Source: Candidatus Saccharimonadota bacterium (GTDB taxonomy: Bacteria > Patescibacteriota > Saccharimonadia > Saccharimonadales > JACOTW01). From it: DNA of 64,000 nucleotides. The DNA is taken from NCBI GenBank assembly GCA_016178135.1, contig JACOTW010000012.1:1064-65063 (forward strand). Direction: 5' to 3'. A program made the position numbers and the translations under genes. The notes below the pieces were generated by a model. It worked only from the letters and a program-made list of their open reading frames with translations, searched no databases and had not been told where the DNA came from. How positions within the stretch are numbered: position 1 is the first letter of the stretch; the number at the start of each line of letters is the position of its first letter. Positions 1-58,077 of this stretch are shown piece after piece.

Positions 1-2976
1 ATCAATGCCACGTTGAGTTTTTTTAACACTGCCCGACACGCCGCGGTCTATAAAATCCAAGGTTACGAATTTGGGCAGTTCACCATGTGATATTTGCCAA
101 GCTAGGGCGTATATCGCCAATTGTTGACTGCTACTTGCTCGTAGTTTGGCTTTTTGAATCGTGTCTACACTACTCATAGTTTTATAGTCCACGATCTCGA
201 TTCCACCACTTTCAGACGGTAAAATCGCATCGAATCGGCCAGTAATTGATAGGTTTATGTCTTTAACGGTAAAACTAAACGGTTTTTCTACGGCAATCGG
301 AATACGTTGTTCTTTAGTAGCTTGGGCATATAGTCTCTTTAGAGTAGAGTGAGCCTGCGTAAGCGATCTTTCGCGATGGCGTAATGAAGCGTAGCCAGCT
401 TTTGGCCACTGTGTTTCAAGCTGATTGATTAACTCGGTAAGCGATGGCAGTTTACCGGCAATTAAGCCAAGATTTATTTCCTCGACCAATCCGTGCATTA
501 TAGATCCGTAGCGTAGTGCTGGACTAGGCTCTTTAGGGATATTCAAAATGTAACAATAATAGAAGTCTAAGGGACAATCCAAATATTTTTGAGCCTGACT
601 AACACTTAAATGTACATGACCGTTATTGAGTATATTGTTGGGAACACGCAAGGATTGTAGGGGCTTATTACCGTGTAAATCTATTGCGTGAAAGGCGGCC
701 TTGTTGGCAGTGGCAGGGCTTGAAAAATCTTGCAAGTCTAATGCCTCGGTCAAAAATCTGGACGGTTTACGTATAGTTGAAGAAGAATGGTGTTCCGAAT
801 ACGTCAAGATTAACTCGTTTCTGGCACGAGTCATGGCAACATACATAAGTCGGCGTTCTTCAGCCATATGAGTATTGGCTTCACTTTCTTGACTTGTGTC
901 CTTACTGGATTTACTGGACTTACGCAAAGCTCCCCCATCCCCAGACCAATTCATCTCGGCTGGTAGCGGTCTGTATTCTCTCGATGTAGCTATGGCTACC
1001 TCTCCTTCAGTCAAACTACTATCTGCTCGAGCTGATTTGCCCTGGGAACGGGCGATTTTGCGTAAGTCCAGTTTAGCTTGGTGATGAGGAGCTTCGCGCG
1101 AATCCAATAGCTTTTCTGGTAGGATAATGCCCCGAAGATTCTCTCGTAGAGGAAATGATTCTTCAGAGCAGTCGGCAACATAGACTATCGGCCATTCTAG
1201 TCCCTTAGCTTTGTGTATGGTGAGGATGTTAACGAATTGATTTGCTAGATCCATAGTGTTATCTTCACCCCCTTCCCCTGCGGCCTGGAGTGCCGGTAAT
1301 GTTTCTATGAACTGAATAGCACTGGGTACTAGAGCAATCTGCTCAAACTCTTTCATGACCGCAAAAAACTGTCCCAATCTGCTGGCAACTATAGCTGAAG
1401 AAGCATCTTCTTCACTGATTTTGTAGAGGCGATCTTTATAGCCACTGTCATCTAATATTGCATAAGCCAATTGTCCAACGGTTGTGATGCCAATTTTTTC
1501 GTGCCAGATTTTTATCAATTCTATAGCACTTCTGGCTTCAGCCAATTCAGGTTCTTCGGAGTTGGTAATATTATCAAGTAAAGATTCGTGCTGGTTTTTT
1601 GTTACTGCGTTTAGGCCACTTAATGTTGAGGCGGGTATTGAGAATAGCGGCCCCAAGAGGGTGTGATATAGACTGGTGTTGTTGTGCGGATCAACAACTG
1701 TCTTAATTGACTCTAGTAACATGCGTACAGACGGATCTTTATATAGTTCATAGCGTTGACCAGTAACGGCGTGTTCAATATCAAGATAATCCAAATGTTC
1801 ATGTAAAAGCTGAATGGTAGTATTGCGACGGGCCATTATGGCAATTGATCCAGGTGAAGCTCCGGCATTTAGCCGTCGCTTGACGTCGTTGGCTATCCAA
1901 GTAAGTTCTTCGTCCAGGGTAGTGAATTTGTATGCGCGTGGTGGTTCACCTGACCTATCACTCACCAGTTGTTTATCTATGTTGAGGCGCACCTCAAGTC
2001 GATGTGGATTATTGTGCTGGATAAGCCGATAGGCGCTTGCCAGTATTTCTTTGGTTGAGCGATAGTTTTGTGTTAGGGCTATTTCTTTAGCTGCAGGATA
2101 ACGGTCTTTAAATTCCAAGATGTTGGCGAGTGTAGCTCCCCTCCAACCGTAGATACTTTGGTCATCATCACCAACCACGAACAAATTTTTTCGCGGAGCG
2201 GCAATTAGATCAACCAGCACTGATTGCATAGTGTTTGTGTCTTGAAACTCATCTACCATGACGTAGTCATAACTGTCTTGAACTTCTTTTAATACATTTG
2301 ATCGTTTTCTTAATAGCTCAATGAGTAAATAGATTTGGTCATCATAATCAATTACATTGGCTTCACGACAAAGTCGAATGTATGCTTCGTAAGCTTTAGC
2401 CAATTCTTGGTACTTGATCTTATTAAGTTTTTCCTCTGGTTGGCTAGTTGGCATATTTTCGACGTATTGATTATGGGTTTCGGGAGTTATTATCTGCTGC
2501 TTGAGTTGTGAAAAATAAGCAGCAAGATCACTGATTAAGCTATCTGGTCTGGCAAGTGGCGCAAAATATTCTAAACCTAATGCATCTACTCTTTCTCCTA
2601 AAAATACAATCTGCGCGCTCTGTCCTAAAACTATGAAATTACGCCCCAAACCAATATCTGCTGCATAACGCCTAAGCAAACTCTCGCCGTAGGCGTTAAA
2701 AGTCATTATTGGTAGCTCAAGTTCATATAATCCGCGTGAAGCGTTAACGCGGTCTAGCATTTCAGTGGCGGCTTTTTCAGTAAAAGTTAATGCCAATAAT
2801 CGTTTTGTCGGTACGCCTTTTTCGATGAGTCGATTAATTCGTTCTACTATAACACTGGTTTTTCCGGTACCGGCACCAGCTACTACCAATATTGGACCTT
2901 TTTCGGCAGTAATTGCTGCTCTTTGAGCATCATTAAATCTCTCGTATGCTGCAATAGAGTTATCCACAGGCTTCAT
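1..2976 (-). CDS. UvrD/PcrA-family ATP-dependent DNA helicase with C-terminal PD-(D/E)XK-like nuclease motif. The 3' end runs off the window start. Carries an in-frame family-A element.
   Basis: Own translation from ATG at 2976: MKPVDNSIAAYERFNDAQRAAITAEKGPILVVAGAGTGKT (Walker A), VDEFQDTN, QNYRS, TIHKAKGLEWP, EERRLMYVAMTRA, IEIVDYKT. Absent from the ORF track, presumably because the ORF has no stop inside the window. Confidence 0.85.
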   Translation of the reverse strand, partial: MKPVDNSIAAYERFNDAQRAAITAEKGPILVVAGAGTGKTSVIVERINRLIEKGVPTKRLLALTFTEKAATEMLDRVNASRGLYELELPIMTFNAYGESLLRRYAADIGLGRNFIVLGQSAQIVFLGERVDALGLEYFAPLARPDSLISDLAAYFSQLKQQIITPETHNQYVENMPTSQPEEKLNKIKYQELAKAYEAYIRLCREANVIDYDDQIYLLIELLRKRSNVLKEVQDSYDYVMVDEFQDTNTMQSVLVDLIAAPRKNLFVVGDDDQSIYGWRGATLANILEFKDRYPAAKEIALTQNYRSTKEILASAYRLIQHNNPHRLEVRLNIDKQLVSDRSGEPPRAYKFTTLDEELTWIANDVKRRLNAGASPGSIAIMARRNTTIQLLHEHLDYLDIEHAVTGQRYELYKDPSVRMLLESIKTVVDPHNNTSLYHTLLGPLFSIPASTLSGLNAVTKNQHESLLDNITNSEEPELAEARSAIELIKIWHEKIGITTVGQLAYAILDDSGYKDRLYKISEEDASSAIVASRLGQFFAVMKEFEQIALVPSAIQFIETLPALQAAGEGGEDNTMDLANQFVNILTIHKAKGLEWPIVYVADCSEESFPLRENLRGIILPEKLLDSREAPHHQAKLDLRKIARSQGKSARADSSLTEGEVAIATSREYRPLPAEMNWSGDGGALRKSSKSSKDTSQESEANTHMAEERRLMYVAMTRARNELILTYSEHHSSSTIRKPSRFLTEALDLQDFSSPATANKAAFHAIDLHGNKPLQSLRVPNNILNNGHVHLSVSQAQKYLDCPLDFYYCYILNIPKEPSPALRYGSIMHGLVEEINLGLIAGKLPSLTELINQLETQWPKAGYASLRHRERSLTQAHSTLKRLYAQATKEQRIPIAVEKPFSFTVKDINLSITGRFDAILPSESGGIEIVDYKTMSSVDTIQKAKLRASSSQQLAIYALAWQISHGELPKFVTLDFIDRGVSGSVKKTQRGID
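914..1071 (+). mobile_element. Family-A hairpin MITE-like element, copy A1 (158 bp), intragenic in helicase
   Basis: Termini CTGGACTTACGCAAAG ... ATTTTGCGTAAGTCCAG. Direct TTTA at 910-913 and 1072-1075. Confidence 0.9.
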
Positions 2977-3595: not shown

Positions 3596-3739
3596 AATAA
3601 TGGTAATGAGAAGCAAAAAGCCGCGTTCTATAAAGGCTCTAGGCTCAAACTCCAGCTCTACGAATCAGGGTAATGATGTCTAATTTAGGGGCACTGGATA
3701 GACCCCATATGACAACAAACTACACTTCTCAAGGCTAGA

Positions 3740-3897
3740 CTGGACTTACGCAAAGCTCCCCCATCCCCAGATCAATTCATCTTGGCTGGTAGCGATCTGT
3801 CTTCTCTCGATGTAGCTATGGCTACCTCTCCTTTAGCCAAACCACTCCCAACTCGAGCTGATTTAGCCTGGGAACGGGCGATTTTGCGTAAGTCCAG
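3740..3897 (+). mobile_element. Family-A element, copy A2 (158 bp), intergenic
   Basis: Perfect 16-nt inverted termini. Direct TAGA at 3736-3739 and 3898-3901. Confidence 0.9.
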
Positions 3898-3926
3898 TAG
3901 ACCTTGTACTCCTTCGCCGGGGTTGT

Positions 3927-6246: not shown

Positions 6247-6580
6247 TTCCGACACACATTTCGCACTTTTCCATTGCCCCAGTTCACTCCTAACTGGCTA
6301 CAAACTATTGATCTGCCCTCCATGTAGCTACAGCTACCTCTCCATCAGTTCAACAGTTTTCGCTCAGCTATAGCCATTCCAAAACAAAATGACCAAATTT
6401 TGAGTGATGGATGATGAGTCTAAAAACTAGCTTTCTTTGACTAAAGCATATCCGTAGATATGCTGCAGACAAAAAAGTAGTTTTTAGATCATCAGGCGCA
6501 GACAAAAATGGTCATTTTGTTTTGGGATGGCTATAGGCGCAAACTGGCATCAACGGCTAAGTGCGAAATGCGTGTCCGAG
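6247..6580 (+). mobile_element. Composite: divergent family-A element (termini GACACRCATTTCGCAC) interrupted by a family-B-like element
   Basis: 6251-6268 GACACACATTTCGCACTT is the inverted complement of 6559-6576. The interior aligns to A4 (GGCTACAAAC...GTAGCTACAGCTACCTCTCC...CAGTTTTCGCTCAG) up to the nested insertion. Confidence 0.7.
6368..6536. mobile_element. Family-B-like variant element (169 bp) nested inside the composite
   Basis: Termini CTATAGCCATTCCAAAACAAAATGACCA ... TGGTCATTTTGTTTTGGGATGGCTATAG. Confidence 0.75.
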
Positions 6581-11996: not shown

Positions 11997-13408
11997 ATTC
12001 TGAACCAAACTTGCCCTTGTTTTGTGTCGCGCACGCCGATACCTTCTCCTGCAAGCCTATCACGAAGTTGGTCTGATTTTACCCAGTTTTTGTTGTCCCT
12101 TGCCTTTTGTCTTTCACTGAGGGTTAGCTTTTGGGCATCTGATATATTGCTACGATTAGTTAAGTCTAGACCCAGAATCTGGTCAATATAGTCCAATAAG
12201 TTCTTAAAATAACTTAGCTGATCTTCTTCAATTGTGAAGTGCAACATATCAGCCGTTAAGTCGCTGACTTGTTTTAGTACCTCCGGCAGATTTATGTCAT
12301 CTTCGATAGCTTTCTTGATGCTCTCAAGGTGTTTGAGAAAATCTCCTTCAACCAGACCCGACTCGCCTTTGGTTCGCGTCTGGAATACTAAGTCTGCCAT
12401 TGCTCGGATATCTTTTATACGGTTTTGGGCGGCCTCGAGGTTTGTCCAGGTGAAATTGCTTTGGCTACGATAGTGGGATTGTAGAACCATCAGGCGGAAG
12501 GCTAGCGGGTCAAGATCATTGTCCTGTATATCTTGGAGGGTGAAAAAATTATTTAGTGATTTACTCATTTTTCTGCCATCAACCAGTAGATGCTCGTTAT
12601 GGATAAATATATTCGCGAGCGTTGGGTTGGCTTTACCTGCGGTGCTTTGAGCAATCTCGTTTTCGTGATGTGGAAAAATCAAATCTACGCCTCCGGTGTG
12701 AATATCAAAAGGTTGTCCAAGCGTGTTAGCACTCATAGCCGAACACTCGATGTGCCAGCCCGGTCGGCCATCAAGTTTCTTGCCGTCCAGTGTAAAATCC
12801 CAGATTGGTTCGTCCGCTTTTCCGATTTTCCATAGCGCGAAATCATGTGGCGAATCTTTATCGTATTCATCATTTTGAATACGTGCCGAGGAAGTATTAC
12901 TGTCCGTGATATCCAGTAGCTGGCCATACTTTTTGCCACTGTCTCGATATTCTTTAATCGAAAAATACACGCCATCGTCGGCTATGTACGCGAAGCCATC
13001 GTCATGAAGTTTTGTGATCAGGGCTTTCATATCTTCAATGCGATCGGTAGCATTTATAAACTTAATGGACTCTACATCACAGCCGACGCTCCGCATATCA
13101 TCCAGAAATAGTTTAGAATATTCGGTGGTTAGTTTCTTTAGCGCTTGTTTGGGGTCGAGATTGGGGTATTTTTCTTTACTTCGCTTGATAGTTTTATCGT
13201 CTACATCAGTAAAGTTCATGACATGATCGATCTCGTAGCCACTGGCTCGCAAGGTTCGACTCAGTGTATCGGCATAGATAAAGCTAGCCAAATTACCAAT
13301 GTGTATATGATCATAAACTGTCGGGCCACAAGAATAAATCGACACCTTTTTATTATTCAGTGGCGTAAAATCTTCAATCTCTCGTATAAGTGTGTTATAT
13401 AATCTCAT
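11993..13408 (-). CDS. cysS: Cysteinyl-tRNA synthetase
   Basis: CGPTVYDHIHIGNL (HIGH) and KMSKSLNN motifs. Confidence 0.95.
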   Translation of the reverse strand: MRLYNTLIREIEDFTPLNNKKVSIYSCGPTVYDHIHIGNLASFIYADTLSRTLRASGYEIDHVMNFTDVDDKTIKRSKEKYPNLDPKQALKKLTTEYSKLFLDDMRSVGCDVESIKFINATDRIEDMKALITKLHDDGFAYIADDGVYFSIKEYRDSGKKYGQLLDITDSNTSSARIQNDEYDKDSPHDFALWKIGKADEPIWDFTLDGKKLDGRPGWHIECSAMSANTLGQPFDIHTGGVDLIFPHHENEIAQSTAGKANPTLANIFIHNEHLLVDGRKMSKSLNNFFTLQDIQDNDLDPLAFRLMVLQSHYRSQSNFTWTNLEAAQNRIKDIRAMADLVFQTRTKGESGLVEGDFLKHLESIKKAIEDDINLPEVLKQVSDLTADMLHFTIEEDQLSYFKNLLDYIDQILGLDLTNRSNISDAQKLTLSERQKARDNKNWVKSDQLRDRLAGEGIGVRDTKQGQVWFRI

Positions 13409-14580
13409 GACTTGTCTGTAATTTTATCAAGTAATTCTGTGGCGATGGTTAGGCATTCGGTTTTGACTGCTTGCGCTGTGCGACTGTCCGTGACCTTGAA
13501 GCCACTGGCGTAAACGTGCCCACCACCGCCAAAATGAGATGCCAAATCGGCCGCGATGCTGGCACCGGCATTACATCGGATTGAACCGGTAATTTTGCCG
13601 TCATTATAAACTTTCAAGACTATCGCTACTTTTACGCCTTCGGTTTGTAGCATGTCTGTTTGAATAAGTGGGGCTGGATTGTATAGCGGACTGTATTTCA
13701 TTAGTTCATCATGCCCAATACTGACTAATGCGATTCTGTCATCGCTCAATAATTCAGTTCTGTCTATCAGGGTAGCTTTGTATTTAAAAATCGTTTTGGG
13801 CATCTTGGCCTGTGCGCGACGAGCTTCCTCGAGTTTTATTCTGTTAACTCCGCCCTCTATGAGGTCGGCCATAATTCTATAGGTATTTGGCGTTGTGCCT
13901 TCGCTGGAAAGCCCCAGGGAATCTGATAGGATTGAACTAGTGATATGGGTTTTTGCCTGGAGGTTGAGCGGCCAGTTTAGCTCATCGGCCAGTTTATAAA
14001 TCACTTCGCCGGTTGCTACGGCATCATGATCATTTATGACAAGTGTAGCGTAGGTTATGTCGCACTCCACATCAGTGTGATGATCGAGTACGATTACTGG
14101 CTTGGAAGCTACGATGCTTTTGTAGCTACTGTTGTCGAGTTTCTCCAGAAGGATTGCAGCACTAGTGTCTACTATGATGCTTAAGTCGATTTTGTTCGGA
14201 ATCTCCTTACTGACTCTGTCCCAGCCGTCCAAATGACGCAAGTATTCTGGAATATTTACACCACAATACAGAAATGTTTGCTTGCCTGCGTCCCCCAGTA
14301 TTTCCTCAAGTGCCAGGGCACTTCCCAGACTATCCCCATCCGGGTTATCCGCCTGGATTATTGCAATCCGCTCTGATTCATCAACCAACTTCTTAATACC
14401 CTGGTATAGCCCCCGCAAAACAAATTCGGGGGTTTTGGAGCCGATGATCTTCGAGTCAAAAACTGGCTTTTCTGAGGGAAGCATATCATTAGATAAGGTG
14501 AGTGAGGAAAGACAGCTTTTGACCGGAGAGGGCGGTTCAAAAAGCAGTGAATTTGTTTTGCGGGGGCTATAATTATTCAT
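13405..14580 (-). CDS. DHH/DHHA1 phosphoesterase (NrnA-like) carrying an in-frame family-B element after codon 3
   Basis: DNPDGDSLGS, DHH and GGGH motifs. ATG overlaps the recR stop (ATGA). Confidence 0.8.
   Translation of the reverse strand: MNNYSPRKTNSLLFEPPSPVKSCLSSLTLSNDMLPSEKPVFDSKIIGSKTPEFVLRGLYQGIKKLVDESERIAIIQADNPDGDSLGSALALEEILGDAGKQTFLYCGVNIPEYLRHLDGWDRVSKEIPNKIDLSIIVDTSAAILLEKLDNSSYKSIVASKPVIVLDHHTDVECDITYATLVINDHDAVATGEVIYKLADELNWPLNLQAKTHITSSILSDSLGLSSEGTTPNTYRIMADLIEGGVNRIKLEEARRAQAKMPKTIFKYKATLIDRTELLSDDRIALVSIGHDELMKYSPLYNPAPLIQTDMLQTEGVKVAIVLKVYNDGKITGSIRCNAGASIAADLASHFGGGGHVYASGFKVTDSRTAQAVKTECLTIATELLDKITDKS
14405..14571 (+). mobile_element. Family-B element, copy B1 (167 bp including both TA), intragenic
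   Basis: Termini TATAGCCCCCGCAAAACAAATTC ... GAATTTGTTTTGCGGGGGCTATA. Confidence 0.9.
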
Positions 14581-15595: not shown

Positions 15596-15762
15596 TATAG
15601 CCCCCGCAAAACAAATTCGGGGGTTTTGGAGCCGATGATCTTCGAGTCAAAAACTGGCTTTTCCGAGGGAAGCATATCATTAGATAAGGTGAGTGAGGAA
15701 AGACAGCTTTTGGCCGGAGAGGGCGGTTCAAAAAGTCGTGAATTTGTTTTGCGGGGGCTATA
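15596..15762 (+). mobile_element. Family-B element, copy B2 (167 bp), intergenic
   Basis: Differs from B1 at 4 positions by manual alignment. Same orientation. Confidence 0.9.
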
Positions 15763-16944: not shown

Positions 16945-17032
16945 GAATTTCTTAAGTAGTATACATCGAAAAAGGAAAAACTGTTTGCAACCGGCTTGGG
17001 ACAAGCTGGTATCAACGGCTAACTGGACCTGT

Positions 17033-17182
17033 CGCAAAACTCCTCCATCCCCAGATCGAATTCTATCGGCTACAAACAGTTTTTCTTCTCTCGATGTAGC
17101 TACGGCTACCTCTCCTTCAGACAAAACAGTTTTCGCTCAAGATAATTCACTCTGGGAACGGACGATTTTGCGACAGATCCAG
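17033..17182 (+). mobile_element. Family-A element, copy A4 (150 bp, CTGTCGC subtype), intergenic
   Basis: CTGGACCTGTCGCAAAAC ... ATTTTGCGACAGATCCAG. Flanks are CTAA and TTAA. Confidence 0.85.
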
Positions 17183-17200
17183 TTAAGTTCAGTAAAAAGA

Positions 17201-18563: not shown

Positions 18564-20279
18564 CTACTCTAGCACTTCAGCGCCACCGAAGATATTGCTT
18601 ATGGTTCCCAGTGCTGTTGACGGCGCTTTGATCACTGGTTTATCAATGGCGGACTGTACATCCATGTTCTTAACAACAATACAATTTATGGAAATTTTTT
18701 TACCAGTTTGTTCATACAAAATGGATTCGATTGTCGCTTTATTTTTGGATTCGTTAAGTTGTTTTTGATGAAATGGAAAGCCGAAGCTAAGGGTCAATAC
18801 GTCATCATTTAATTCTGCGGAAGCCATACGCGCAAGGCTATATAGTGTGTTGTGTTTGTTTTTTATAGCTACTAACGCGGCCGGCCATATATTAGATTCA
18901 TGCAAAGTCTTCTCGTTCCCAGACTGGCCAACCTCGGCTGATTCGATATTTTTGTCAGATAAGATTTTTTGCGGTTCTTGTTTTTGGATGGTAGTAGTCT
19001 GCTGGGAGGTGGTTTTTTTGGTGTGGTTCTTTGGAGTTTTCTTGTGCGATACGGGTAACGTGGCTGGTGGTGCTAAGCTCGATTTATGCGAAATCTCCGC
19101 ATCCCCAGACCAACTAATCTCAAGCGGTAGCGGTCTGCCTTCTTTCGATGTAACTAAGGCGGCTACCTCTCCTTCAGTCAAACCACTATCTGCTCGAGCT
19201 GATTTAGCCTGGGAACGGGCGATTTTGCGTAAGTCCAGTGAATGATCTTCTGATTCACTTTTGGCTAGCCCAGTAGAATGCGAGGTTTTGCGTAGGTCTA
19301 GGGACTGCTTTGTTTTGGTATTCTCCAGGGCTGCTCCGATAAGCGTGATTTCCAGCGCCGAGGCTGGATCGTGAGCAGTTGGTACGGTCAGTAACTTTTC
19401 CAAGATTGAGGTAAATGCAGATGGCTCAAAAGACCATTCGCCATCCAGTAGATCATGGCGTAATTGTGCACTTAGTTGTTTGGCTATTTGACCAGGGTGA
19501 AAGCCTTGCTCGGATAGTTCGTCAAGCAGTTTAACTACTTCTTTTGCTGCACCTTCACTAACGACCTTTTTAAGTTGTGTTATAACTGCATTGGGAGCAA
19601 TTCCCAAAACTTCAATAACGTTATTCTCGCTAATATTTTTACCACTACTTGCTATTTGGTCGAGTAGGCTTATGCTATCACGGAATGATCCATCCCCGTG
19701 TTTAGCTATAAGCTCAAGAGCACCGTCGTCTATGTCAATATTTTCTGATTTGGCAATTGTGCGCAGATGTTGCGCGACTTTATGGGTTTCTATCGGTTTA
19801 AAAGTAAAACGCTGAGTTCTGCTGATTATGGTTTCCGGCAATTTGTGGGCTTCTGTGGTTGCCAAAATAAAAATAGCGTGCGCTGGTGGCTCCTCAAGCG
19901 TTTTTAAGAGAGCGTTGAAAGCTTCTCGGGTCAGCATATGTACTTCATCAATAATGTAAACTTTGTATTTCGTGCTGGTCGGGGTATTGTGTACTCGTTC
20001 ACGAATTTCTCTAATTTCATCAATTCTTCGGTTGCTCGCGGCATCAATCTCAATAATATCGAGATGCGATCTATCATCATCGTAAGGCAAATTATTAACT
20101 TCATGCGCTAAAATTCTGGCAATACTGGTTTTACCAGTGCCACGTGGTCCAGTAAATAAATAGGCGTGACTTATAGAGTTATTTTTTATGGCATTCTTGA
20201 GGGTCGTGGTGATGTGTTCCTGTCCCACTATTTCAGATAATTTCTTAGGTCGGTATTTCCGATACAATGCTTTCCCCAT
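18564..20279 (-). CDS. dnaX: DNA polymerase III gamma/tau subunit with in-frame family-A element
   Basis: YRPKKLSEIVGQEH, GPRGTGKTS, IIDEVHMLT, LLKTLEEPP. Confidence 0.9.
   Translation of the reverse strand: MGKALYRKYRPKKLSEIVGQEHITTTLKNAIKNNSISHAYLFTGPRGTGKTSIARILAHEVNNLPYDDDRSHLDIIEIDAASNRRIDEIREIRERVHNTPTSTKYKVYIIDEVHMLTREAFNALLKTLEEPPAHAIFILATTEAHKLPETIISRTQRFTFKPIETHKVAQHLRTIAKSENIDIDDGALELIAKHGDGSFRDSISLLDQIASSGKNISENNVIEVLGIAPNAVITQLKKVVSEGAAKEVVKLLDELSEQGFHPGQIAKQLSAQLRHDLLDGEWSFEPSAFTSILEKLLTVPTAHDPASALEITLIGAALENTKTKQSLDLRKTSHSTGLAKSESEDHSLDLRKIARSQAKSARADSGLTEGEVAALVTSKEGRPLPLEISWSGDAEISHKSSLAPPATLPVSHKKTPKNHTKKTTSQQTTTIQKQEPQKILSDKNIESAEVGQSGNEKTLHESNIWPAALVAIKNKHNTLYSLARMASAELNDDVLTLSFGFPFHQKQLNESKNKATIESILYEQTGKKISINCIVVKNMDVQSAIDKPVIKAPSTALGTISNIFGGAEVLE
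19078..19238 (+). mobile_element. Family-A element, copy A5, intragenic in dnaX (left terminus degenerate)
   Basis: CTCGATTTATGCGAAATCTCCGCATCCCCAGACC ... GATTTTGCGTAAGTCCAG. Confidence 0.8.
19286..19301 (+). repeat. Orphan family-A right terminus inside dnaX
   Basis: TTTTGCGTAGGTCTAG, 47 nt from A5. Translated as a second LDLRK. Confidence 0.6.
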
Positions 20280-24255: not shown

Positions 24256-24564
24256 ATGCATTTTTCAGAAGCAAATTTTTCACGAGTAAATATGGACGGG
24301 GAGACTCTAGGTGGATTGGTGGAGAGTGTTTTGAGCGCCGCCACTAGTACCGATAGTCCTAATATTGAAATAAATCCAGAAGACGTGCGTGTTTTGACTG
24401 GTATGCTGATCGGGAGTCCTCCTATTGACGGAAATGAAGAAATCAGGCGTTTTGATGTCGTGCAGGCTGGTTATCGTCAGAACAATAATATACCCGTCGA
24501 TGGGCATGTGAAAAGGCTTTACGACATCTGGCGTTCTCTAAAAAGAAATATCAATGAAACTTAA
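24256..24564 (+). CDS. Hypothetical protein
   Basis: 102-aa ORF. No SD or motif recognised. Confidence 0.35.
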   Translation: MHFSEANFSRVNMDGETLGGLVESVLSAATSTDSPNIEINPEDVRVLTGMLIGSPPIDGNEEIRRFDVVQAGYRQNNNIPVDGHVKRLYDIWRSLKRNINET

Positions 24565-26900: not shown

Positions 26901-27610
26901 AGTGCTTTTAAACCTTTTATCGTCCCCGGTAGAGCACGCTTGTCTTTATAGGCTCGCGGCAATAGCATTTCTGGCTGCCAGTTTTTTATAATTTCTTTGA
27001 GATTGGTTCCTGTTTGATACTTGCCACTAAAGCCATTGTGGCGGCCTTCTCCGTAACTGCCATCAACAGGTCCGGTTTCCAGAAAAACAGCTTGTGCTAT
27101 ACGTTCACCGACCGGTAAAAGCACGGTTTCGTGTTCGTTCAAATTATAAATTTCCAACGTTAAGCGATTAATGTAGCCTGGTTCAACCCAGCCGGCATCA
27201 AAACAAACAGCTATACCATTTCTGCCCCAGCTGGATCGGGATTTGACCTCGTAAGCTCCGGGTGGTTTAATCCCAAAAAATTCATGGGTGTGGGCCAAAA
27301 TTCGTTCGCCTGGACGCAGTGGAATTATAGGATGATTCGGAGGTATATTCTCTAATAATTCTACGCCATTATCGGTACACCAATCCTGATGCGGTATAGC
27401 TTGGTGAACTTCACCGAAATACCGATCCACATCATTTTCATCAAATGGATTGTAGACGTAACCCCTCTTGGCTTGCCCTGTGCGGTAATAGTAGTAGCCT
27501 AGCGTGACATCAAGGCTTGCGTGGGAAATATGCTTAGGATTGAATGGCGTGCAAACAATATGACCTTCCTCTATGGCCTGACGAATTTGAATATTGCTGT
27601 AAACTCCCAT
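26897..27610 (-). CDS. dcd: dCTP deaminase / dUTPase-superfamily protein
   Basis: SLDVTLG, SSWGRNGI, DAGWVEPGYINRLTLEIYN. Confidence 0.7.
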   Translation of the reverse strand: MGVYSNIQIRQAIEEGHIVCTPFNPKHISHASLDVTLGYYYYRTGQAKRGYVYNPFDENDVDRYFGEVHQAIPHQDWCTDNGVELLENIPPNHPIIPLRPGERILAHTHEFFGIKPPGAYEVKSRSSWGRNGIAVCFDAGWVEPGYINRLTLEIYNLNEHETVLLPVGERIAQAVFLETGPVDGSYGEGRHNGFSGKYQTGTNLKEIIKNWQPEMLLPRAYKDKRALPGTIKGLKAL

Positions 27611-27676
27611 GTCGTATATTGTACGGAATGTTTTGATATTTGCACAACCTTATGTGGAAATATTACAACTATTCTA

Positions 27677-27836
27677 CTGGACCTGTCGCAAAACTCCCCC
27701 ATCCCCAGACCAATTCATCTCGGCTGGTAGCGGTCTGTCTTCTCTCGATGTAGCTATGGCTACCTCTCCTTCAGTCAAACCACTCCCACCTCGAACTGAT
27801 TTGCCCTGGGAACGGGCGATTTTGCGACAGGTCCAG
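27677..27836 (+). mobile_element. Family-A element, copy A6 (160 bp, CTGTCGC subtype), intergenic
   Basis: CTGGACCTGTCGCAAAAC ... ATTTTGCGACAGGTCCAG. Direct TCTA at 27673-76 and 27837-40. Confidence 0.9.
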
Positions 27837-27873
27837 TCTAGAAGTCAATTTTCCTGAACCCAGAGTTTGATGA

Positions 27874-28875
27874 CTATATACCGGCTGTAGATACTGGAAT
27901 ACTTGGACCCATAGAGGTAGTAACGTACAGGCTTTTTAGGTAGATGCCTTTTAGGCCAGTAGGTTTGGCGGACTTAATGCTAGCCATCACTGTTTCGGCA
28001 TTTTGAGCTAATTTTTCTTTGCCAAAACTTACTTTTCCAATACCAAGATGAATTATGCCAGTGCCATCAACGCGATATTCAACGCGTCCAGCCTTGGCCT
28101 CTTTCACTGCCTTTGCTACGTCGGTGGTTACAGTACCACTTTTAGGGTTTGGCATCAGACCTTTAGGCCCAAGAATACGCGCGTATTTACCCAACTTGGC
28201 CATTACTTTAGGTGTGGCGATTAATACGTCAAAATCCATAGTTCCTTTATCTAGCTGTTGAAGGAATTCTTCACTACCAGCAATGTCGGCACCAGCCTTC
28301 TTGGCGGCTGTTACATCGTTTGCCTCACCAAATACGGCGATGCGGATATTTTTACCCGTACCAGCAGGCAAAGTAACGGTTCCGCGAATATTTTGATCTG
28401 CTTGCTTAGGATCAACACCTAGTCGTATGTGTAATTCGACAGTGGCATCGAATTTAGCAGGATTGGTTATGGTAGCTAATTCAAGAGCTTCCGGCAGTTC
28501 ATATAATTTATCTTCGATAATTTGATCATGTAGCTTTCTATAATTTTTGCTACGGCGTTCTAGGCGTGTGCGGGGTTTCTTTTGTGCTGGTTTTATTGTT
28601 GCTTTTGCCTCAACTGTTTTACGCTCTTCTTTCTCTTGCTTGGCTACCGTTTCTTGGATGGCTTTAATACTTCTTTTGCCTGATTTCGCGAGTGGCTTAT
28701 CGGTCGTAGCGGAGGGCTTACTGGACTGACTCAAAGCTCCTTCATCTCTACTGGACTTAATAACCTCGGGTGCCACTTCTTTGATTGTGGTTGATGTCTT
28801 TTTCTTGACGGCGGTTGTTGGTAGCTTACTTTTTACTTTTTTTTCGGTCATGTGCTTTATCCTTTCGTGGTTCAA
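27874..28875 (-). CDS. rplA: 50S ribosomal protein L1 with an about 105-aa Lys/Thr/Ala-rich N-terminal extension
   Basis: FDATVELHIRLGVDPKQADQNIRGTV and the C-terminal L1 core. Confidence 0.9.
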   Translation of the reverse strand: MNHERIKHMTEKKVKSKLPTTAVKKKTSTTIKEVAPEVIKSSRDEGALSQSSKPSATTDKPLAKSGKRSIKAIQETVAKQEKEERKTVEAKATIKPAQKKPRTRLERRSKNYRKLHDQIIEDKLYELPEALELATITNPAKFDATVELHIRLGVDPKQADQNIRGTVTLPAGTGKNIRIAVFGEANDVTAAKKAGADIAGSEEFLQQLDKGTMDFDVLIATPKVMAKLGKYARILGPKGLMPNPKSGTVTTDVAKAVKEAKAGRVEYRVDGTGIIHLGIGKVSFGKEKLAQNAETVMASIKSAKPTGLKGIYLKSLYVTTSMGPSIPVSTAGI

Positions 28876-31154: not shown

Positions 31155-31297
31155 CGGATTTATGCAAAAATCTATCATTACCAGATTGAATAACTTCGAC
31201 CGCAAACAGTTTTTTTGCTTTAGATACATTTCCTTCAGATAAAACTGTTTTCGCTCGAGCTGATTAGATATGGAAAAGAGGTTGTAGCTCATTTTAA
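31155..31297 (+). repeat. Degenerate family-A copy (A7) between secE and nusG
   Basis: TCGGATTTATGCAAAAATC...CGCAAACAGTTTTTTT...CCTTCAGATAAAACTGTTTTCGCTCGAGCTGATT aligns to A4/A11. Termini are eroded. Confidence 0.5.
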
Positions 31298-33638: not shown

Positions 33639-33650
33639 GTTTTTATTATA

Positions 33651-33890
33651 CTGGGCCTGTCGCAAAATCCCTCGTTCCCAGGACGAATCAGCTCGAGCGA
33701 AAACAGTTTTGTCTGAAGGAGAGGTACCCAGGAGGTATAGTCCCCGCAAAACAAATTCGTGGGTTTTTGAAGCAATGATCTTTGAGCCAAAAACTGACTT
33801 TTCCGAGAGAGACATATCCTTAGATACGTTGAACGAGGAAAGGCGGTTTTGGGCCAAAGAGGGTGATTCGAAATTTTGCGACAGGCCCAG
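33651..33890 (-). mobile_element. Composite: family-A element (CTGTCGC subtype) carrying a nested truncated family-B element
   Basis: CTGGGCCTGTCGCAAAATCCC...GGTACCCAGGAG | TATAGTCCCCGCAAAAC...GATTCGAAA | TTTTGCGACAGGCCCAG. Direct TATA at 33647-50 and 33891-94. Confidence 0.85.
33736..33873 (+). mobile_element. Family-B subtype B' (right terminus missing), copy B3, nested in A
   Basis: 138 nt. Differs from B4 at 2 positions by manual alignment. Confidence 0.85.
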
Positions 33891-33978
33891 TATAGGACCT
33901 TCGTACTTTGTCGCCAATTCCAGAGTAATCCTGCAGCCCTCTAGGATTGGTCTGGGGTGATGAAAAAGTAGGAAAAAC

Positions 33979-34641: not shown

Positions 34642-34701
34642 TCCTATTAAATTATAACAATTAGACAAAATTTGCAAAGTTTTGTTTCGGGTGATTATAG
34701 A

Positions 34702-34861
34702 CTGGACCTGTCGCAAAATCCCTCGTTCCCAGGGCGAATCAGCTCGAGCGAAAACAGTTTTATCCGAAGGAGAGGTACCAGGGAGGTACATCGAGAGAGG
34801 AAAAACTGTTTGCAGCCGAGATTAGTCGGTCTGGGGATGAGGGATTTTGCGACAGGTCCAG
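34702..34861 (-). mobile_element. Family-A element, copy A9 (160 bp, CTGTCGC subtype), intergenic
   Basis: Perfect termini. Direct TAGA at 34698-701 and 34862-65. Confidence 0.9.
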
Positions 34862-34882
34862 TAGAATACAACCGAACCGCGT

Positions 34883-35462: not shown

Positions 35463-36152
35463 GTGAGCAGTTATAGCCCCCGCAAAACAAATTCGTGGGT
35501 TTTTGAAGCAATGATCTTTGAGTCAAAAACTGACTTTTCCGAGAGAGACATATCCTTAGATACGTTGAACGAGGAAAGGCGGTTTTGGGCCAAAGAGGGT
35601 GATTCGAAAAGAGCTTATTATCTAACACAGTTTGACGCGCTGGAAGCTCTAGACAACGGTGTTGGTAATTGTTTTTCGAAAGCTATGGTTGCATGTGGAA
35701 TAATAGTATTAAAATATGCGGTTGAGCCGTCAATAGTTTATAAAAAGTCGATACATGGCTCTAAAGATACTGCGATTGATAAGCCTACGGACTCAAAAAC
35801 AGGCAAAAAAATCGCGCATGTGGTTGTAGCCGTACCCGGTTCAAATCCAACTACAGATAAATCTATTCCGGGCTTGAATTTTGGAGTAGCAGTTTCCCAA
35901 GGAGTTAAATTTACCCAAACAGATGCAGGTGAAATACTACAGGATTATAATGAACCCGGAGAATTTGTACGTGTTAATGAAACGGGCACAGTGATTGCTA
36001 CTGAAATTGCTACTGAACGGGGTATGTTTGGTGATAGGTGGCGGGATATTGCTCCAGATTATTTACAAGCTTTGGACAGACCTGACCTGGACATAGATCT
36101 CTTAATTGGTAAGCTCAAAGAATCATACCCAGATGATCAAGTTGCGGCATAG
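35463..36152 (+). CDS. Hypothetical protein. The first about 49 codons derive from family-B element B4. Possible Cys-His peptidase-like core.
   Basis: GTG start at 35463. No alternative ATG before residue 75. GNCFSKAMVAC ... AHVVVAV noted, but this is a weak motif. Confidence 0.4.
   Translation: MSSYSPRKTNSWVFEAMIFESKTDFSERDISLDTLNEERRFWAKEGDSKRAYYLTQFDALEALDNGVGNCFSKAMVACGIIVLKYAVEPSIVYKKSIHGSKDTAIDKPTDSKTGKKIAHVVVAVPGSNPTTDKSIPGLNFGVAVSQGVKFTQTDAGEILQDYNEPGEFVRVNETGTVIATEIATERGMFGDRWRDIAPDYLQALDRPDLDIDLLIGKLKESYPDDQVAA
35472..35610 (+). mobile_element. Family-B subtype B' copy B4 (right terminus missing)
   Basis: TATAGCCCCCGCAAAACAAATTCGTGGG...GGGTGATTCGAAA. Confidence 0.85.
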
Positions 36153-36628: not shown

Positions 36629-36785
36629 TTGGTCTTACGTAAAATCTCTTGTCTCCAGGGTGAATCGGCTCGAGCGAAAACGGTTTTATCCGAAGGAGAC
36701 GTACCCGAGCACATCGATAGTCGATAGAACTGTTTGTAGTCGAGATTAGTCGGTATAGGAATAAGGGAGTTCTAGCTAAGTTCAG
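36629..36785 (-). mobile_element. Family-A element, copy A10 (degenerate termini), between tRNA-Thr and rpmG
   Basis: TTGGTCTTACGTAAAATC...GGGAGTTCTAGCTAAGTTCAG. Ends 3 nt from the tRNA-Thr 3' end. Confidence 0.75.
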
Positions 36786-36788
36786 GTT

Positions 36789-43121: not shown

Positions 43122-44188
43122 GAATCCAGTAAATTAAAAAATTCTTCGGGTACTGGCACCTGAAATGTCATGTGCTTACCATTTTTCAGTGTAAGCTCTA
43201 GTTTTTCGGCGTGAAGGTATAGCCGATCAGCGGACTGGCCGTCGTATATCGTATCCCCTACAATAGGATAGCCTAGCTTTTTTAAGTGCACGCGTAGTTG
43301 ATGGGTGTGCTCAGTGCGCGGTTTTAGTTCAACTAAATCATAATTTTTTCCTGATTTAACAACATTGTATTCCGTTTGTGCCGTTTTGCCATTTATGCCA
43401 GTTCTAAATGTCTGTGGATGCTTAGGATTCCGCTCTATAGGCATATCAATAATCGCATGCGCAGGTATAATATGGCCAAAAACCACTGCTTTATAAGTTT
43501 TATATACCTTACGTGTAGAGAATTGCTTTTGAAGCCAGCTAAGCGAAGTATTGTTTTTGGCGCAAATAATAACCCCAGAGGTCGCCCTATCCAGACGATG
43601 AACAATCCCCTCTCGAGTTTGCATGGAAGATTTCTGCGAGTCCGATAAACTGGACTTACCCAAAGCTCCCTCATCCCCAGACCGACTAACCTCGGCTACA
43701 AACAGTTTTTCCTCTCTCGATGTACCTTCAGGTACCTCTCCTTCAGACAAAACTGTTTTCGCTCGAGCTGATTCGCCCTGGGAACGAGGGATTTTGCGTA
43801 AGTCCAGTAAACTAGTATTTTGTTGTCTAGCATGTTTATTCAAGTGATCGAATAGCCAAGTTGCGATGGTTGCTTCGGGATTGAACGCTCCTTTGCTGTG
43901 CGTCAACAACCCAGCTGGTTTATTTATAACAACACAGTCGTCATCTTCGTACAAAACCGGCAATTCTATTCTGGGTATATCTTCAGTTGTATTTGGATCA
44001 AAATCAATGTTAATTTGATCTTCTAACCTTAGTTTATATCCGGTTTTTTTGATCTCGTCTCCTACAGTTATAAACCCTCGGTTGCATAATTTTTGAACAT
44101 GCGCCCTACTGATTTGAGGTAATTTGTTATGTACAAAAACATCAAGCCTCTCTCCTGCAGAGGTTTTAGGCACCGTTACTTGTATCAT
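43118..44188 (-). CDS. rluD: RluD-type 23S rRNA pseudouridine synthase (S4 domain + RluA core) with in-frame family-A element
   Basis: N-terminal S4 domain (ERLDVFV...). Catalytic HRLDRATSGVIICAKN. Confidence 0.85.
   Translation of the reverse strand: MIQVTVPKTSAGERLDVFVHNKLPQISRAHVQKLCNRGFITVGDEIKKTGYKLRLEDQINIDFDPNTTEDIPRIELPVLYEDDDCVVINKPAGLLTHSKGAFNPEATIATWLFDHLNKHARQQNTSLLDLRKIPRSQGESARAKTVLSEGEVPEGTSREEKLFVAEVSRSGDEGALGKSSLSDSQKSSMQTREGIVHRLDRATSGVIICAKNNTSLSWLQKQFSTRKVYKTYKAVVFGHIIPAHAIIDMPIERNPKHPQTFRTGINGKTAQTEYNVVKSGKNYDLVELKPRTEHTHQLRVHLKKLGYPIVGDTIYDGQSADRLYLHAEKLELTLKNGKHMTFQVPVPEEFFNLLDS
43650..43807 (+). mobile_element. Family-A element, copy A11 (158 bp), intragenic in rluD
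   Basis: CTGGACTTACCCAAAG...ATTTTGCGTAAGTCCAG. Direct TAAA at 43646-49 and 43808-11. Confidence 0.9.
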
Positions 44189-44189
44189 G

Positions 44190-45275
44190 CTACGTACGCA
44201 ATCCTACGGCTTTTTGAACTTTAGCGAGTATTGTTTCAGCAATTTTACACATAGCGGTCTCGCTCATTGCCAACTTTTGCTCCAATGCTTTAGTATCAAC
44301 CATTTCTAATTTTGTCTGAAAATCCTCTAAAAATTGCCCCGTTAATATCGCGACGGCTTCTTTGAGTGGACCGTATTGCTTGGAACCGATAAATTCATGC
44401 TTTCTTCCGCCGAATAGCTCTAAAATATCCAATAAATTACTTATACCTGGCTGGGTAGTATAGTCATATTTGATCTCGCCTAGACTATCAGTAGTTGCGG
44501 ATTGAATTTTTTTGTGAGCTTGTTCCGGCGTATCATTTAAGAATATAACTCCCTTGCCCGATGCATCTGATTTACTCATTTTTTTAGCGGGATCAAGTAA
44601 ATCGCGTATACGTAGACCTTGGTCTTTGCCGAAAAATTCATGCTGCTCTTTAGCTGATTTCGGTACGATAAATAATTCACCAAACTTACTATTCATTCTT
44701 TCGGCAATATCACGTGTAAATTCCAGGTGTTGTTTTTGGTCATCTCCAACCGGTACGTATATAGCCCCATACAAAAGTATATCCGCAGCCATAAGTACAG
44801 GATAATCGAATAGCCCCATACTTACATGATTTTGTTGAAACGCATTCTTTGGATTAGCAGAAAAGGAATCTTGTCGAGCTGATTCACCCTGAGAACGAGG
44901 GATTTTGCGTAAGTCCAGTTTATCCTTAAACTGGGTCATGCGAGACATCTCTCCAAATCCAGTAAAACTATTCAGAATTATAGTAAGCTCACTATGTGCC
45001 GGCACATAACTTTGACGATAAATGTGTATATTTGGGTTGTCCAGCGGCAAACCAGCGGCTGCAAATACCCGCAGGTTATTCATAATGCCAGCCTGAAGTT
45101 GGCTGTGATCAATCGGTGTAGTAAAACTATGTAAGTCCGGAACGAACAAATTGATTTGATAATCATCGGCATGCCGTCGAGCCATATCAATTATAGGCAA
45201 AAGCGCCCCCAGATAGTTGCCTATATGTAGGTCATTATTAGCCCTAAGTCCGGTCAAAATCACTGGCTTATTCAT
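44190..45275 (-). CDS. trpS: Tryptophanyl-tRNA synthetase with a 15-codon family-A remnant
   Basis: HIGNYLGA (HIGH), KMSKS, YPVLMAADILLY. ATG at 45275 is chosen because upstream residues are translated repeat A13. Confidence 0.9.
   Translation of the reverse strand: MNKPVILTGLRANNDLHIGNYLGALLPIIDMARRHADDYQINLFVPDLHSFTTPIDHSQLQAGIMNNLRVFAAAGLPLDNPNIHIYRQSYVPAHSELTIILNSFTGFGEMSRMTQFKDKLDLRKIPRSQGESARQDSFSANPKNAFQQNHVSMGLFDYPVLMAADILLYGAIYVPVGDDQKQHLEFTRDIAERMNSKFGELFIVPKSAKEQHEFFGKDQGLRIRDLLDPAKKMSKSDASGKGVIFLNDTPEQAHKKIQSATTDSLGEIKYDYTTQPGISNLLDILELFGGRKHEFIGSKQYGPLKEAVAILTGQFLEDFQTKLEMVDTKALEQKLAMSETAMCKIAETILAKVQKAVGLRT
44874..44918 (+). repeat. Family-A right-arm remnant (45 nt) inside trpS
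   Basis: TCGAGCTGATTCACCCTGAGAACGAGGGATTTTGCGTAAGTCCAG followed by TTTA. Confidence 0.85.
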
Positions 45276-45327: not shown

Positions 45328-45484
45328 TAGGACTTACGCACTTTGTTACCAATGCCAGAGTGTAGCTGGGTGAGCGAAAACGGTTCAGGTTCTGGAGGGG
45401 TAGCCATAGCTACACCGAGAGAACATGGGCCGTTTGTAGCCACATAGGTTAAGTCTGGTGTGGTAAGAAAGTGCGTAAGTCCTA
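45328..45484 (-). mobile_element. Family-A element, copy A13 (157 bp), between rpsI and trpS
   Basis: TAGGACTTACGCACTTT ... AAAGTGCGTAAGTCCTA. Flanked by TATA on both sides. Confidence 0.8.
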
Positions 45485-49408: not shown

Positions 49409-49551
49409 CTGGATTTACGCAAAACCGCTCGTTTCCAAAGTGATTCAGACCGACCCAAAACAGTTTTACCTGAAGGTACATCAAAAGAATAAAAACCGTT
49501 TGTAGCCGAACTGAATCGGCCTGGGGATGAGGGAGTTTTGGGTAAGTTCAG
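49409..49551 (-). mobile_element. Family-A element, copy A14 (143 bp, eroded), between rpmJ and rpsM
   Basis: CTGGATTTACGCAAAACCGCTCG...GGGAGTTTTGGGTAAGTTCAG. Confidence 0.8.
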
Positions 49552-53533: not shown

Positions 53534-53575
53534 AACAAGAAACCTCCGATTGCGGTAGTAATTTGTAGATATAAA

Positions 53576-53733
53576 CTGGACTTACGCAAAATCGCCCGTT
53601 CCCAGGCTAAATCAGCTCGAGTTGGGAGTGGTTTGACTGAAGGAGAGGTAGCCATAGCTACATCGAGAGAAGACAAACCGCTATCAGCCGAGATGAATTG
53701 GTCTGGGGATGGGGGAGCTTTGCGTAAGTCGAG
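53576..53733 (-). mobile_element. Family-A element, copy A15 (158 bp), between rpsH and rplF
   Basis: CTGGACTTACGCAAAATCGCCCG...GAGCTTTGCGTAAGTCGAG. Direct TAAA at 53572-75 and 53734-37. Confidence 0.9.
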
Positions 53734-53811
53734 TAAAGTATTATCACAAGCCTCCATAAGACCTGTCCTAACCATTCTATATTCTACGTTATATGTTGCT
53801 TTACTCATCTT

Positions 53812-57818: not shown

Positions 57819-57848
57819 TATACGATTCCCCTAGAATTATTGAATAGA

Positions 57849-57991
57849 CTTGACTTACGCAAAATCGCTCGTTCCCAAGGCGAATTAGCTCGAGCGAAAA
57901 TAGTTTTGTCTGAAGATACATCGAGATATGAAAAACTGTTTGCAAGCGAGGTTATTCGGTCTTCGGATAGGACAACTTTGTATGAGTCCAG
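57849..57991 (-). mobile_element. Family-A element, copy A16 (143 bp), between rplV and rpsC
   Basis: CTTGACTTACGCAAAATCGCTCG...CTTTGTATGAGTCCAG. Direct TAGA at 57845-48 and 57992-95. Confidence 0.85.
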
Positions 57992-58077
57992 TAGAGGCCT
58001 ATGGGATAGCCCCCAGCGAATTACCAGATACGAAGACCTGTTATCTATTACCTGTAATCTGTAATCTGATAATTTCA

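Follow-up and report, generated by a model that had tools for sequence, protein, structure and literature searches.

Between two open reading frames (ORFs) of a Candidatus Saccharimonadota bacterium (assembly GCA_016178135.1, contig JACOTW010000012.1) lies a short palindromic repeat, at positions 27677-27836 of the 64,000-nt stretch of DNA analysed here (the window), and relatives of this repeat recur both between and inside the genes of the same stretch. The locus raises the question of which copies of such a repeat a gene can carry, and whether the repeat itself has been tuned for coding neutrality, as an initial annotation of the sequence had proposed. Our analysis indicates that the feature is very probably a copy of a non-autonomous, cut-and-paste transposable element of the miniature inverted-repeat type (MITE) that folds into a hairpin over its whole length, and that genes carry the copies that preserve the host frame and survive there. 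The coding-neutral architecture was confirmed and accounts for the selection of copies retained in genes, whereas the evidence for tuning of the element is suggestive only.

Structure of the element and of its two families

The element at 27677-27836 is a 160-bp member of a family designated A, with perfect 16-nt terminal inverted repeats (TIRs; CTGGACCTGTCGCAAA...TTTGCGACAGGTCCAG) and TCTA immediately on either side (27673-27676 and 27837-27840). A hidden Markov model (HMM) built from the window copies detected, besides several fragments, 11 near-full-length copies of family A in the window (Table 1). The commonest form, distinguished by TTACGC, is 158 bp long (CTGGACTTACGC...GCGTAAGTCCAG) and, together with a 4-bp target-site duplication (TSD), adds 162 bp to its host sequence however the boundary is parsed. 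The CTGTCGC form, to which the element at 27677-27836 belongs, has one extra base in each TIR, which brings it to 160 bp and a net gain of 164 bp, and several 159-bp copies are hybrids that combine a terminus of one form with a terminus of the other. The difference between the 158-bp and the 159/160-bp forms is two single-nucleotide TIR changes that shift the frame, and the 160-bp form is usually still free of stops. The TSDs of family A follow the pattern TNNA (TTTA, TATA, TCTA, TGTA, TAAA, TAGA, TACA and TTGA) and are perfect in most copies, and 13-14 of the 14 terminal bases are complementary in most copies; TIRs accompanied by perfect TSDs of variable sequence were found in more than 25 copies.

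A second family, B, measures 163 bp, carries the TIR TAGCCCCCGCAAAACAAATTC at both ends and is flanked by TA on each side (167 bp counting both TA), for a net gain of 165 bp; TA was present on both sides in 11 of 11 full copies with flanks printed. The net lengths of 162 bp for the TTACGC form (window copies with TTTA, TAGA, TAAA and other duplications) and 165 bp for family B agree with those first annotated. The terminus CTGGACTTACGCAAA is paired with a 4-bp TSD in family A, and the terminus TAGCCCCCGCAAAAC with TA in family B. The cores of the two families are related (approximately 65% identity over 76 nt, z=5), with the related stretch read in a common frame (E=1e-4 when their peptides are compared by BLASTP), and their element lengths (158 and 163 bp) offset their TSD lengths (4 and 2 bp). 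Elements range from 125 to 165 bp, and their sole ORFs are read-through frames, with no transposase gene. Both families form whole-length hairpins with a minimum free energy of -65 to -98 kcal/mol (z = -8 to -14), and the hairpins of genic copies are not weaker than those of other copies. The minus-strand RNA was more stable than the plus-strand RNA in 49 of 49 full-length family-A copies (for example 914-1071 and 27677-27836), typically by about 15-30 kcal/mol. This gap stems from the two arms differing consistently in G:U versus A:C, and may relate to a function of ssDNA or RNA or to mutation bias.

Genic copies preserve the reading frame of their hosts

The copies were counted in a census of 264 kb in total, made up of the window and ten 20-kb pieces of a 654-kb contig (assembly GCA_040960765.1); the DnaB protein of the window was found exactly on contig JBFOMR010000191.1 (149 kb) of GCA_040960765.1, to which the strains of GCA_016196105.1 and GCA_040960095.1 are nearly identical. 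The census contained 98 family-A and 24 family-B matches, corresponding to 5.1% of bases, and among the family-A matches 49 were near-full-length copies (158 bp, n=30; 159 bp, n=6; 160 bp, n=5; 143 bp, n=2; the rest single copies of other lengths). Genic copies were called by excising the copy in silico, with a long ORF restored over the junction and also read through in the real sequence. On this basis 15 of the 49 copies (about 31%) lie in frame inside long conserved ORFs, remnants besides, and in every one of the 15 the net length is a multiple of three (158 bp, n=13; 161 bp, n=1; 125 bp, n=1). Expressed by length class, 15 of the 35 copies with a net length that is a multiple of three were genic, compared with none of the 14 others (Fisher test, P=0.0023), which upholds the earlier claim that only the frame-preserving subtype occurs inside genes. 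Two apparent genic 159/160-bp copies (at 9464 of sampled locus L055 and at 17720 of L062) were ruled out by their positions, 12 and 19 nt upstream of start codons. The 160-bp form is solely intergenic in the window, as had been stated, but the copy list on which that statement was based had missed the copy at 17023-17182 and the half copy at 33651-33730.

Nearly all genic copies (14 of 15) are read in one of two element frames. Frame +0 is used by eight copies (in obg, tsaE, a Mur ligase gene, the DHFR gene, uvrD, a NUDIX gene, ksgA and mnmA), and frame -0 by six (the window helicase, dnaX, rluD, an LPG synthase gene and, with two copies, a glycosyltransferase gene). The glycosyltransferase gene (L059 4952-6403, P0076) harbours two independent in-frame family-A copies of different subfamilies, about 50 bp apart. 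The host genes in the window, namely the helicase gene (1-3000), dnaX (18564-20279), rluD (43118-44188) and trpS (44190-45443), all lie on the minus strand with the element in frame -0, and their copies read as LDLRKI(A/P)RSQ.... All four insertions are in frame as first annotated, but trpS holds a 50-bp remnant, and dnaX a 161-bp copy together with a 21-codon remnant. The common orientation and frame ascribed to the genic copies is a sampling effect in the window (4 of 4, P=1/8) and does not hold in the 264 kb, where orientation is balanced (8 same versus 7 opposite) and both frames are used. No full copy of family B (0 of 15) lies in the interior of a gene, in contrast to the 15 of 49 for family A, and no insertion of either family into RNA genes was seen in the 264-kb sample.

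The element peptides were also searched for in protein databases. A word-indexed search returned only proteins of at most 184 aa, mostly short hypothetical ORFs, so that long hosts were missed and the result is not a census; an exhaustive profile search over 1.84 billion protein representatives, used in its place, yielded 105 proteins with element peptides. The long proteins among them carry either frame, and 17 of the 20 long (≥200 aa) matches have a recognisable terminus of the LDLRK and/or LRKS type. All named matches came from Candidatus Saccharibacteria or soil metagenome. Three independent assemblies contain the same insert-bearing RluD and DnaX proteins, which are therefore not assembly artefacts. 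The RluD insert was absent from 119 of 119 other listed orthologues (about 60% identity) and occupies a loop of variable length immediately preceding the catalytic HRLD motif; in the AlphaFold model of the protein, the core has a pLDDT confidence score above 90 and the insert one of 38-59. The UvrD_C domain of the helicase is still matched end to end with the insert inside it.

A proposed route to frame-preserving insertion

The geometry of the main form suggests how an insertion could leave its host readable. If the NNA of the TNNA target is a host codon, insertion would add 54 residues (LDLRK...LRKSS plus the repeated NNA codon) and keep the frame in either orientation. Because both termini start with CTG GAC, frame 0 from either end requires that NNA be a host codon, and the repeat of this codon after the insert is indeed seen (...NL/LDLRK...RKSS/L..., slashes marking the junctions). 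One phase in three would thus be tolerated, in either orientation, whereas the other two phases, as well as the 159/160-bp variants, would give a truncated protein and be removed by purifying selection; genes would retain frame-preserving copies only. The surviving genic copies would sit chiefly in variable loops at the surface of housekeeping proteins that are intact apart from the insert.

Open frames of the elements and their expectation by chance

When the 158-bp form is read from its first base, neither strand contains a stop (plus, LDLRKAPPSPDQ...ILRKS; minus, LDLRKIARSQGK...ALRKS). In the 160-bp form these two frames are retained with a shift of one base, three frames are open in family B, and the other host phases of family A encounter two to five stops. 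The initial annotation had assigned an open frame on each strand to every element; this applies to the consensus and to 7 of the 11 near-full-length window copies, but not to those at 3740, 17023, 36629 and 49409. In the copy at 34702-34861, the homologous frames are broken by internal frameshifts. The copies were also correctly identified as the origin of many spurious short ORFs, 16 of which (60-132 aa) are present in the window.

The expectation by chance was estimated with shuffled sequences. An open frame on both strands occurred in 4-17% of dinucleotide shuffles of family A and 12-14% of those of family B, and in 3-11% of shuffles that preserve the hairpin through mirror pairing. The total of stop codons over six frames showed no depletion relative to shuffles. 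The open frames on both strands are thus moderately, not strikingly, unlikely by chance. The prior for a net length divisible by three is one third per family.

Selection on the element, coincidence and other explanations

The pattern of frame-preserving copies in genes is what purifying selection on the host alone would produce, and an account restricted to coincidence and survivorship, in which a subfamily chanced on frame neutrality and host selection filtered its copies with no adaptation of the element, has about an even chance of being correct. The 162- and 165-bp net lengths and the open frames may nevertheless have been shaped by selection on the element lineage. Under element-level adaptation, frame-neutral lineages would leave more surviving copies in a gene-dense genome, and length and sequence would become tuned; we hold this to be a tentative alternative, behind coincidence in probability. 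In favour of it, open frames on both strands were found in only 3-17% of shuffles per family, and of the 30 copies of 158 bp all keep frame +0 open and 27 keep frame -0 open despite about 13 mean substitutions from the consensus, diverged intergenic copies included, a persistence that coincidence does not readily explain; each homologous frame is open in only 7 of the 11 copies of 159/160 bp. New stops fall in frames +0/-0 in 3 of 28 unique events, against 9 expected (P=0.008, uniform model), and those in frames +0/-0 are never common to two copies, compared with 15 shared new-stop sites in the other four frames. The families share a core in one frame, yet the difference in their lengths compensates the difference in their TSDs, and the massive expansion in this genome was that of the frame-neutral form. 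The depletion of new stops, however, weakens to P=0.04 with position-specific rates and to 0.03-0.11 without the copies used as bait in sampling, and the copies are related by descent, so that the events are not fully independent; the conservative tests of stop avoidance are not significant. Several further observations weigh against tuning: the undepleted six-frame stop total, the lack of enrichment of multiple-of-three indels among intergenic length variants (about 3 of 8), the persistence of 159/160-bp variants beside the 158-bp form, and the absence of family B from gene interiors even though it is frame-neutral (165 bp, three open frames). The relatives in two other species (GFS_5930 and ERP113451_co1_98) are 149-160 bp long, often with stops and all intergenic, and the single metagenome relative is 189 bp long with stops; the sister variants and the relatives in other species thus lack the frame-neutral properties, as coincidence would have it. 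Moreover, the probability that a family combines a net length divisible by three with an open frame on each strand is about 1-5%, a value that is not extreme in view of the many existing MITE families and the post hoc choice of this one; the same subtype split is reported for the Correia 107- and 155-bp forms without any claim of adaptation (PMC2229807). A more specific proposal would be that the lineage was selected for compatibility with translation in both orientations, through a net length that is a multiple of three and two stop-free frames encoding loosely structured hydrophilic peptides, with the length shifted from 158 to 163 bp along with a new transposition system; we regard this as conceivable, with a probability marginally below that of element-level adaptation in general. 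If it were true, coding sequence would be a usable habitat for the element, which would decorate an estimated 5% of the proteome.

Two further explanations concern the nature of the element rather than its adaptation. The whole-length hairpins, the strand that is always the more stable and the presence of two Y1_Tnp genes in the genome are reminiscent of REPIN-like hairpins mobilised by a Y1 (RAYT/IS200-type) transposase via single-stranded DNA, as opposed to MITEs of the TIR/DDE type. Transposition by Y1 enzymes (IS200/IS605 family) yields no target duplications, whereas perfect duplications of variable sequence (TNNA, TA) flank most copies here; there is no orientation bias along contigs, and the Y1_Tnp genes do not adjoin A or B copies. 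We therefore rejected a REPIN/RAYT system as very improbable. The stability of the hairpins, which would obstruct the mRNA, could also be taken to mean that the insert is removed before or after translation, by RNA-level excision of the hairpin or as an intein-like peptide, so that its frame would be irrelevant. Precise removal would tolerate any phase, subtype and stop content, yet in each of the 15 genic copies the net length is divisible by three and no stop interrupts the host frame; the peptide, which starts with LDLRK and ends with LRKSS, has no intein termini, and the element had no Rfam match. This reading was likewise discarded and is the least probable of those considered, and the strictness of the phase rule argues for inserts that are translated, not excised.

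Several points count against the interpretation of the feature as a MITE copy whose genic relatives survive by frame preservation. Translation of the inserts is deduced from the strict phase, length and stop-free requirement in the sequences; one genic copy, an old one in a DUF2142 protein, is read in frame -1; and the 264-kb census represents a limited sample of about one third of the genome. The ten census pieces were fetched via short element-derived ORFs as bait, a possible source of sampling bias; dropping the ten bait copies left the relation between genic position and length unchanged (Fisher test, P=0.0026). Furthermore, no autonomous transposase with matching TIRs was found in the approximately 600 kb examined, and no filled/empty polymorphism was found between two strains 99.3-99.7% identical over 35 kb.

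Mobility and relatives of the elements

In view of the lack of insertion polymorphism between near-identical strains, mobility is deduced from the TSDs and from comparison with distant orthologues, and the families may be inactive now. Within the sampled loci (roughly one third of the genome), only ordinary genes and no transposase lie between TIR pairs spaced 400-4000 bp, and neither a family-B TIR pair wider than about 165 bp nor an IS630-like partner was found. In other species, isolated element arms adjoin ORFs that do not encode transposases, one of which resembles a Y-family polymerase by sequence. The sample contains two Y1_Tnp genes (IS200/RAYT-like, 204-223 aa; L056 3750-4421 and L057 16859-17473), both separated from the nearest A or B copy by 1.3 kb or more, together with an rve fragment; none of the three is associated with the elements.

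The sole difference seen at a locus shared by near-identical strains is a 120-bp deletion (L068 7667-7785 versus L067 7785/7786, 99.3% identical), which spans from the inside of a family-B copy to near the end of the adjacent family-A copy; MITE clusters may act as deletion hot spots. At another locus, beside a tRNA gene, L065 carries from about 14857 a serine-recombinase island (Resolvase/Recombinase, methyltransferase and others) where L066 has BrnT/BrnA and a dehydrogenase, pointing to a strain-specific integrated element.

Outside this genome, ten relatives were found in the two other Saccharibacteria species named above, all intergenic, with lengths of 149, 155, 158, 159 or 160 bp and often with stops in all minus-strand frames. 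A metagenome scan gave one true relative among 44 pattern matches, a scan of assembly contigs returned at least 50 stretches, about 20 of them chance matches in other phyla, and plasmid and phage collections contained no relatives. A 1.5-kb contig labelled Pseudomonadales (CAYGCQ010000065.1, L018), on which a copy of family A is present, shares its co-assembly with a Saccharibacteria metagenome-assembled genome (MAG) and is probably mis-binned. A known RNA family was excluded: with gathering scores, Rfam recognised only tRNAs and an L10 leader, and the element had no match at E≤1. An assignment to the Nezha-type MITEs of cyanobacteria was rejected as well, the cyanobacterial HIP1 octamer occurring only once in 64 kb and all named peptide matches being from Saccharibacteria.

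Features of the window and associated observations

The element copies of the window are collected in Table 1. The composite at 33647-33903 looks like the product of nested insertion or of recombination between MITEs, and it gives the YgjP-like ORF at 32916-33917 a spurious 5' extension of roughly 95 aa. The copy at 45331-45458 probably causes a spurious N-terminal extension of the trpS ORF; as the Pfam match starts at residue 60, the first approximately 55 residues of this 417-aa ORF are probably not TrpRS.

Table 1. MITE copies in the window and the genes associated with them; ranges in brackets include the flanking duplication, and frames are those of the element.
Feature	Positions	Strand	Duplication	Context and remarks
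Family A, 160 bp, CTGTCGC form	27677-27836 (27673..27840)	+	TCTA	Intergenic, between ORFs 26897-27610 and 27874-28875; net 164 bp
Family A, 158 bp	914-1071 (910..1075)	+	TTTA	In frame (-0) within UvrD_C of minus-strand UvrD/PD-(D/E)XK helicase; contributes LDLRKIARSQGKSAR...GALRKSS
Family A, 158 bp	3740-3897 (3736..3901)	+	TAGA	Intergenic; one stop in frame -0
Family A, degenerate fragment	6278..6365	+		HMM positions 27-115
DHH/DHHA1 phosphoesterase gene	13405..14580	-		Family-B copy in frame after codon 3 (MNN/YSPRK...LRGL/YQGIKK); start codon inferred
Family B, 163 bp	14407-14569 (14405..14571)	+	TA each side	Net 165 bp; TIR TAGCCCCCGCAAAACAAATTC
Family B, 163 bp with flanking TA	15596..15762	+	TA	Intergenic, recR / PMT_2-like gene
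Family A, 160 bp, CTGTCGC form	17023-17182 (17019..17186)	+	CTAA/TTAA	Intergenic, dnaB / PMT_2-like gene
Family A, 161 bp (158 bp with 3-nt insertion)	19078..19238	+		In frame (-0), dnaX residues 348-400
Family A, second copy in dnaX	19239..19301	+		21-codon in-frame remnant LDLRKTSHSTGLAKSESEDHS
Family A, degenerate, 15-bp central deletion	31156..31280	+		Intergenic
Composite	33647..33903			Half family-A copy (33651-33730, minus), family-B copy without right TIR (33738-33878), family-A terminus
Family A, 160 bp, CTGTCGC form	34702-34861 (34698..34865)	-	TCTA	Upstream of AAA_33 kinase-like gene
Family B, truncated at HMM position 139	35472..35639	+		Fused after codon 3 of ORF 35463-36152
Family A, degenerate	36629..36785	-		Beside tRNA genes
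Family A, 158 bp	43650-43807 (43646..43811)	+	TAAA	In frame (-0), rluD residues 128-181
Family A, right-arm remnant, 50 bp	44869..44918	+		In frame in trpS (LDLRKIPRSQGESAR)
Family A, degenerate	45331..45458	-		5' end of trpS ORF
Family A, 143-bp deletion variant (158 minus 15)	49409..49551	-		Intergenic
Family A, 158 bp	53576-53733 (53572..53737)	-	TTTA	Intergenic; both frames open
Family A, 143-bp deletion variant	57849-57991 (57845..57995)	-	TCTA	Intergenic

MITE copies are often located directly beside tRNA genes (window 36233-37096, L055 14181-14462, L059 675-959 and L061 12761-12975) and were also found 12-19 nt upstream of start codons, a proximity that may reflect a target preference for AT-rich gene boundaries. 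Narrow intergenic gaps, such as the one separating ruvX from yceG, repeatedly contain a pair of a B and an A copy, and at L056 9985-10447 and L058 9931-10423 the annotated proteins P0002 (148 aa) and P0008 (140 aa) consist almost wholly of a family-B copy followed by a family-A copy. Unrelated to the elements, a 779-aa ORF at 24561-26900 of the window has Thymidylate_kin and Thy1 (ThyX) domains, an apparent fusion of thymidylate synthase and thymidylate kinase, and a 727-aa tyrosine recombinase (Phage_integrase; L055 3608-5791) is interrupted by an intein with a LAGLIDADG domain.

Relation to known palindromic elements

In-frame palindromic repeats are already known, and the closest parallel is found in the Rickettsia palindromic elements (RPEs). 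As summarised in PMC2229807, PMC10969869 and PMC1166351 (after Ogata et al. 2000), these are hairpin repeats of about 105-150 bp in a small gene-dense genome, in frame in housekeeping genes, with 19 ORFs affected in R. conorii and 85 of 728 copies in ORFs of R. felis; an RPE-containing guanylate kinase is translated and active, and the inserts sit where the fold tolerates them. Family A resembles them as a hairpin element with an open frame, inserted in frame in conserved housekeeping genes at a fold-tolerant site, as in RluD. In contrast to RPEs, whose TSD is marked as uncertain in a table of the review, families A and B possess well-defined TIRs and clean TSDs (TNNA, TA), and their host is a bacterium of the candidate phyla radiation (Patescibacteria). 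About 31% of full-length family-A copies are genic, compared with about 12% in R. felis; family A uses both orientations via two different open frames; and no insertion of A or B into RNA genes was seen in the sample. In addition, all named matches of the peptide profile (105 representatives) are from Saccharibacteria or soil metagenome and show no relationship to RPEs, although the search did not compare RPE sequences directly.

The Correia/NEMIS element of Neisseria is a MITE with TIRs, a TSD and a long RNA stem-loop, whose 107-bp form has open frames and is fused in genes, whereas the 155-bp form, with stops in every frame, lies almost exclusively between genes (PMC2229807). The split of family A into 158-bp and 159/160-bp forms parallels these genic and intergenic size forms, but the variants of family A differ by frame-shifting TIR changes and not by loss of open frames, and TSD, sequence and host differ. 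Family B is similar to RUP of S. pneumoniae, a MITE of the IS630/Tc1-mariner type, in its TIRs, TA duplication and size near 165 bp, but has three open frames where RUP has stops in all six (PMC2229807). ERIC, YPAL, BOX, BRE and the Methanocaldococcus elements are small palindromic repeats that are fused in frame to host ORFs (PMC3184786, PMC2229807) and, like A and B, generate spurious or extended annotated genes; these are mostly terminal fusions or concern a handful of genes, whereas family A is internal and, by extrapolation, affects an estimated 5% of genes. Our literature search found no paper that joins Saccharibacteria or the candidate phyla radiation with MITEs. What is new here is thus a very dense case in another phylum, apparently unrelated in sequence to RPEs and with clean TIRs and TSDs.

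Implications for Saccharibacteria genomes

The genomes of Candidatus Saccharibacteria are regarded as streamlined. Approximately 5% of this genome nonetheless consists of MITEs, and by extrapolation 40-50 housekeeping genes would carry a 54-residue passenger peptide, affecting replication, translation, the cell wall, and tRNA and rRNA modification enzymes. As regards annotation, public Saccharibacteria MAGs contain dozens of 'hypothetical proteins' (45-150 aa) that are translated MITE sequence, and several gene starts are mis-called inside elements; the repeats also break short-read assemblies, with many matches at contig ends. To our knowledge, the adaptation of transposons by coding neutrality was raised for the RPEs of Rickettsia and has never been settled. 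The occurrence of frame-neutral and frame-shifting variants side by side, in genic and intergenic positions, makes this genome a clean natural experiment on whether transposons become coding-neutral as an adaptation to gene-dense genomes.

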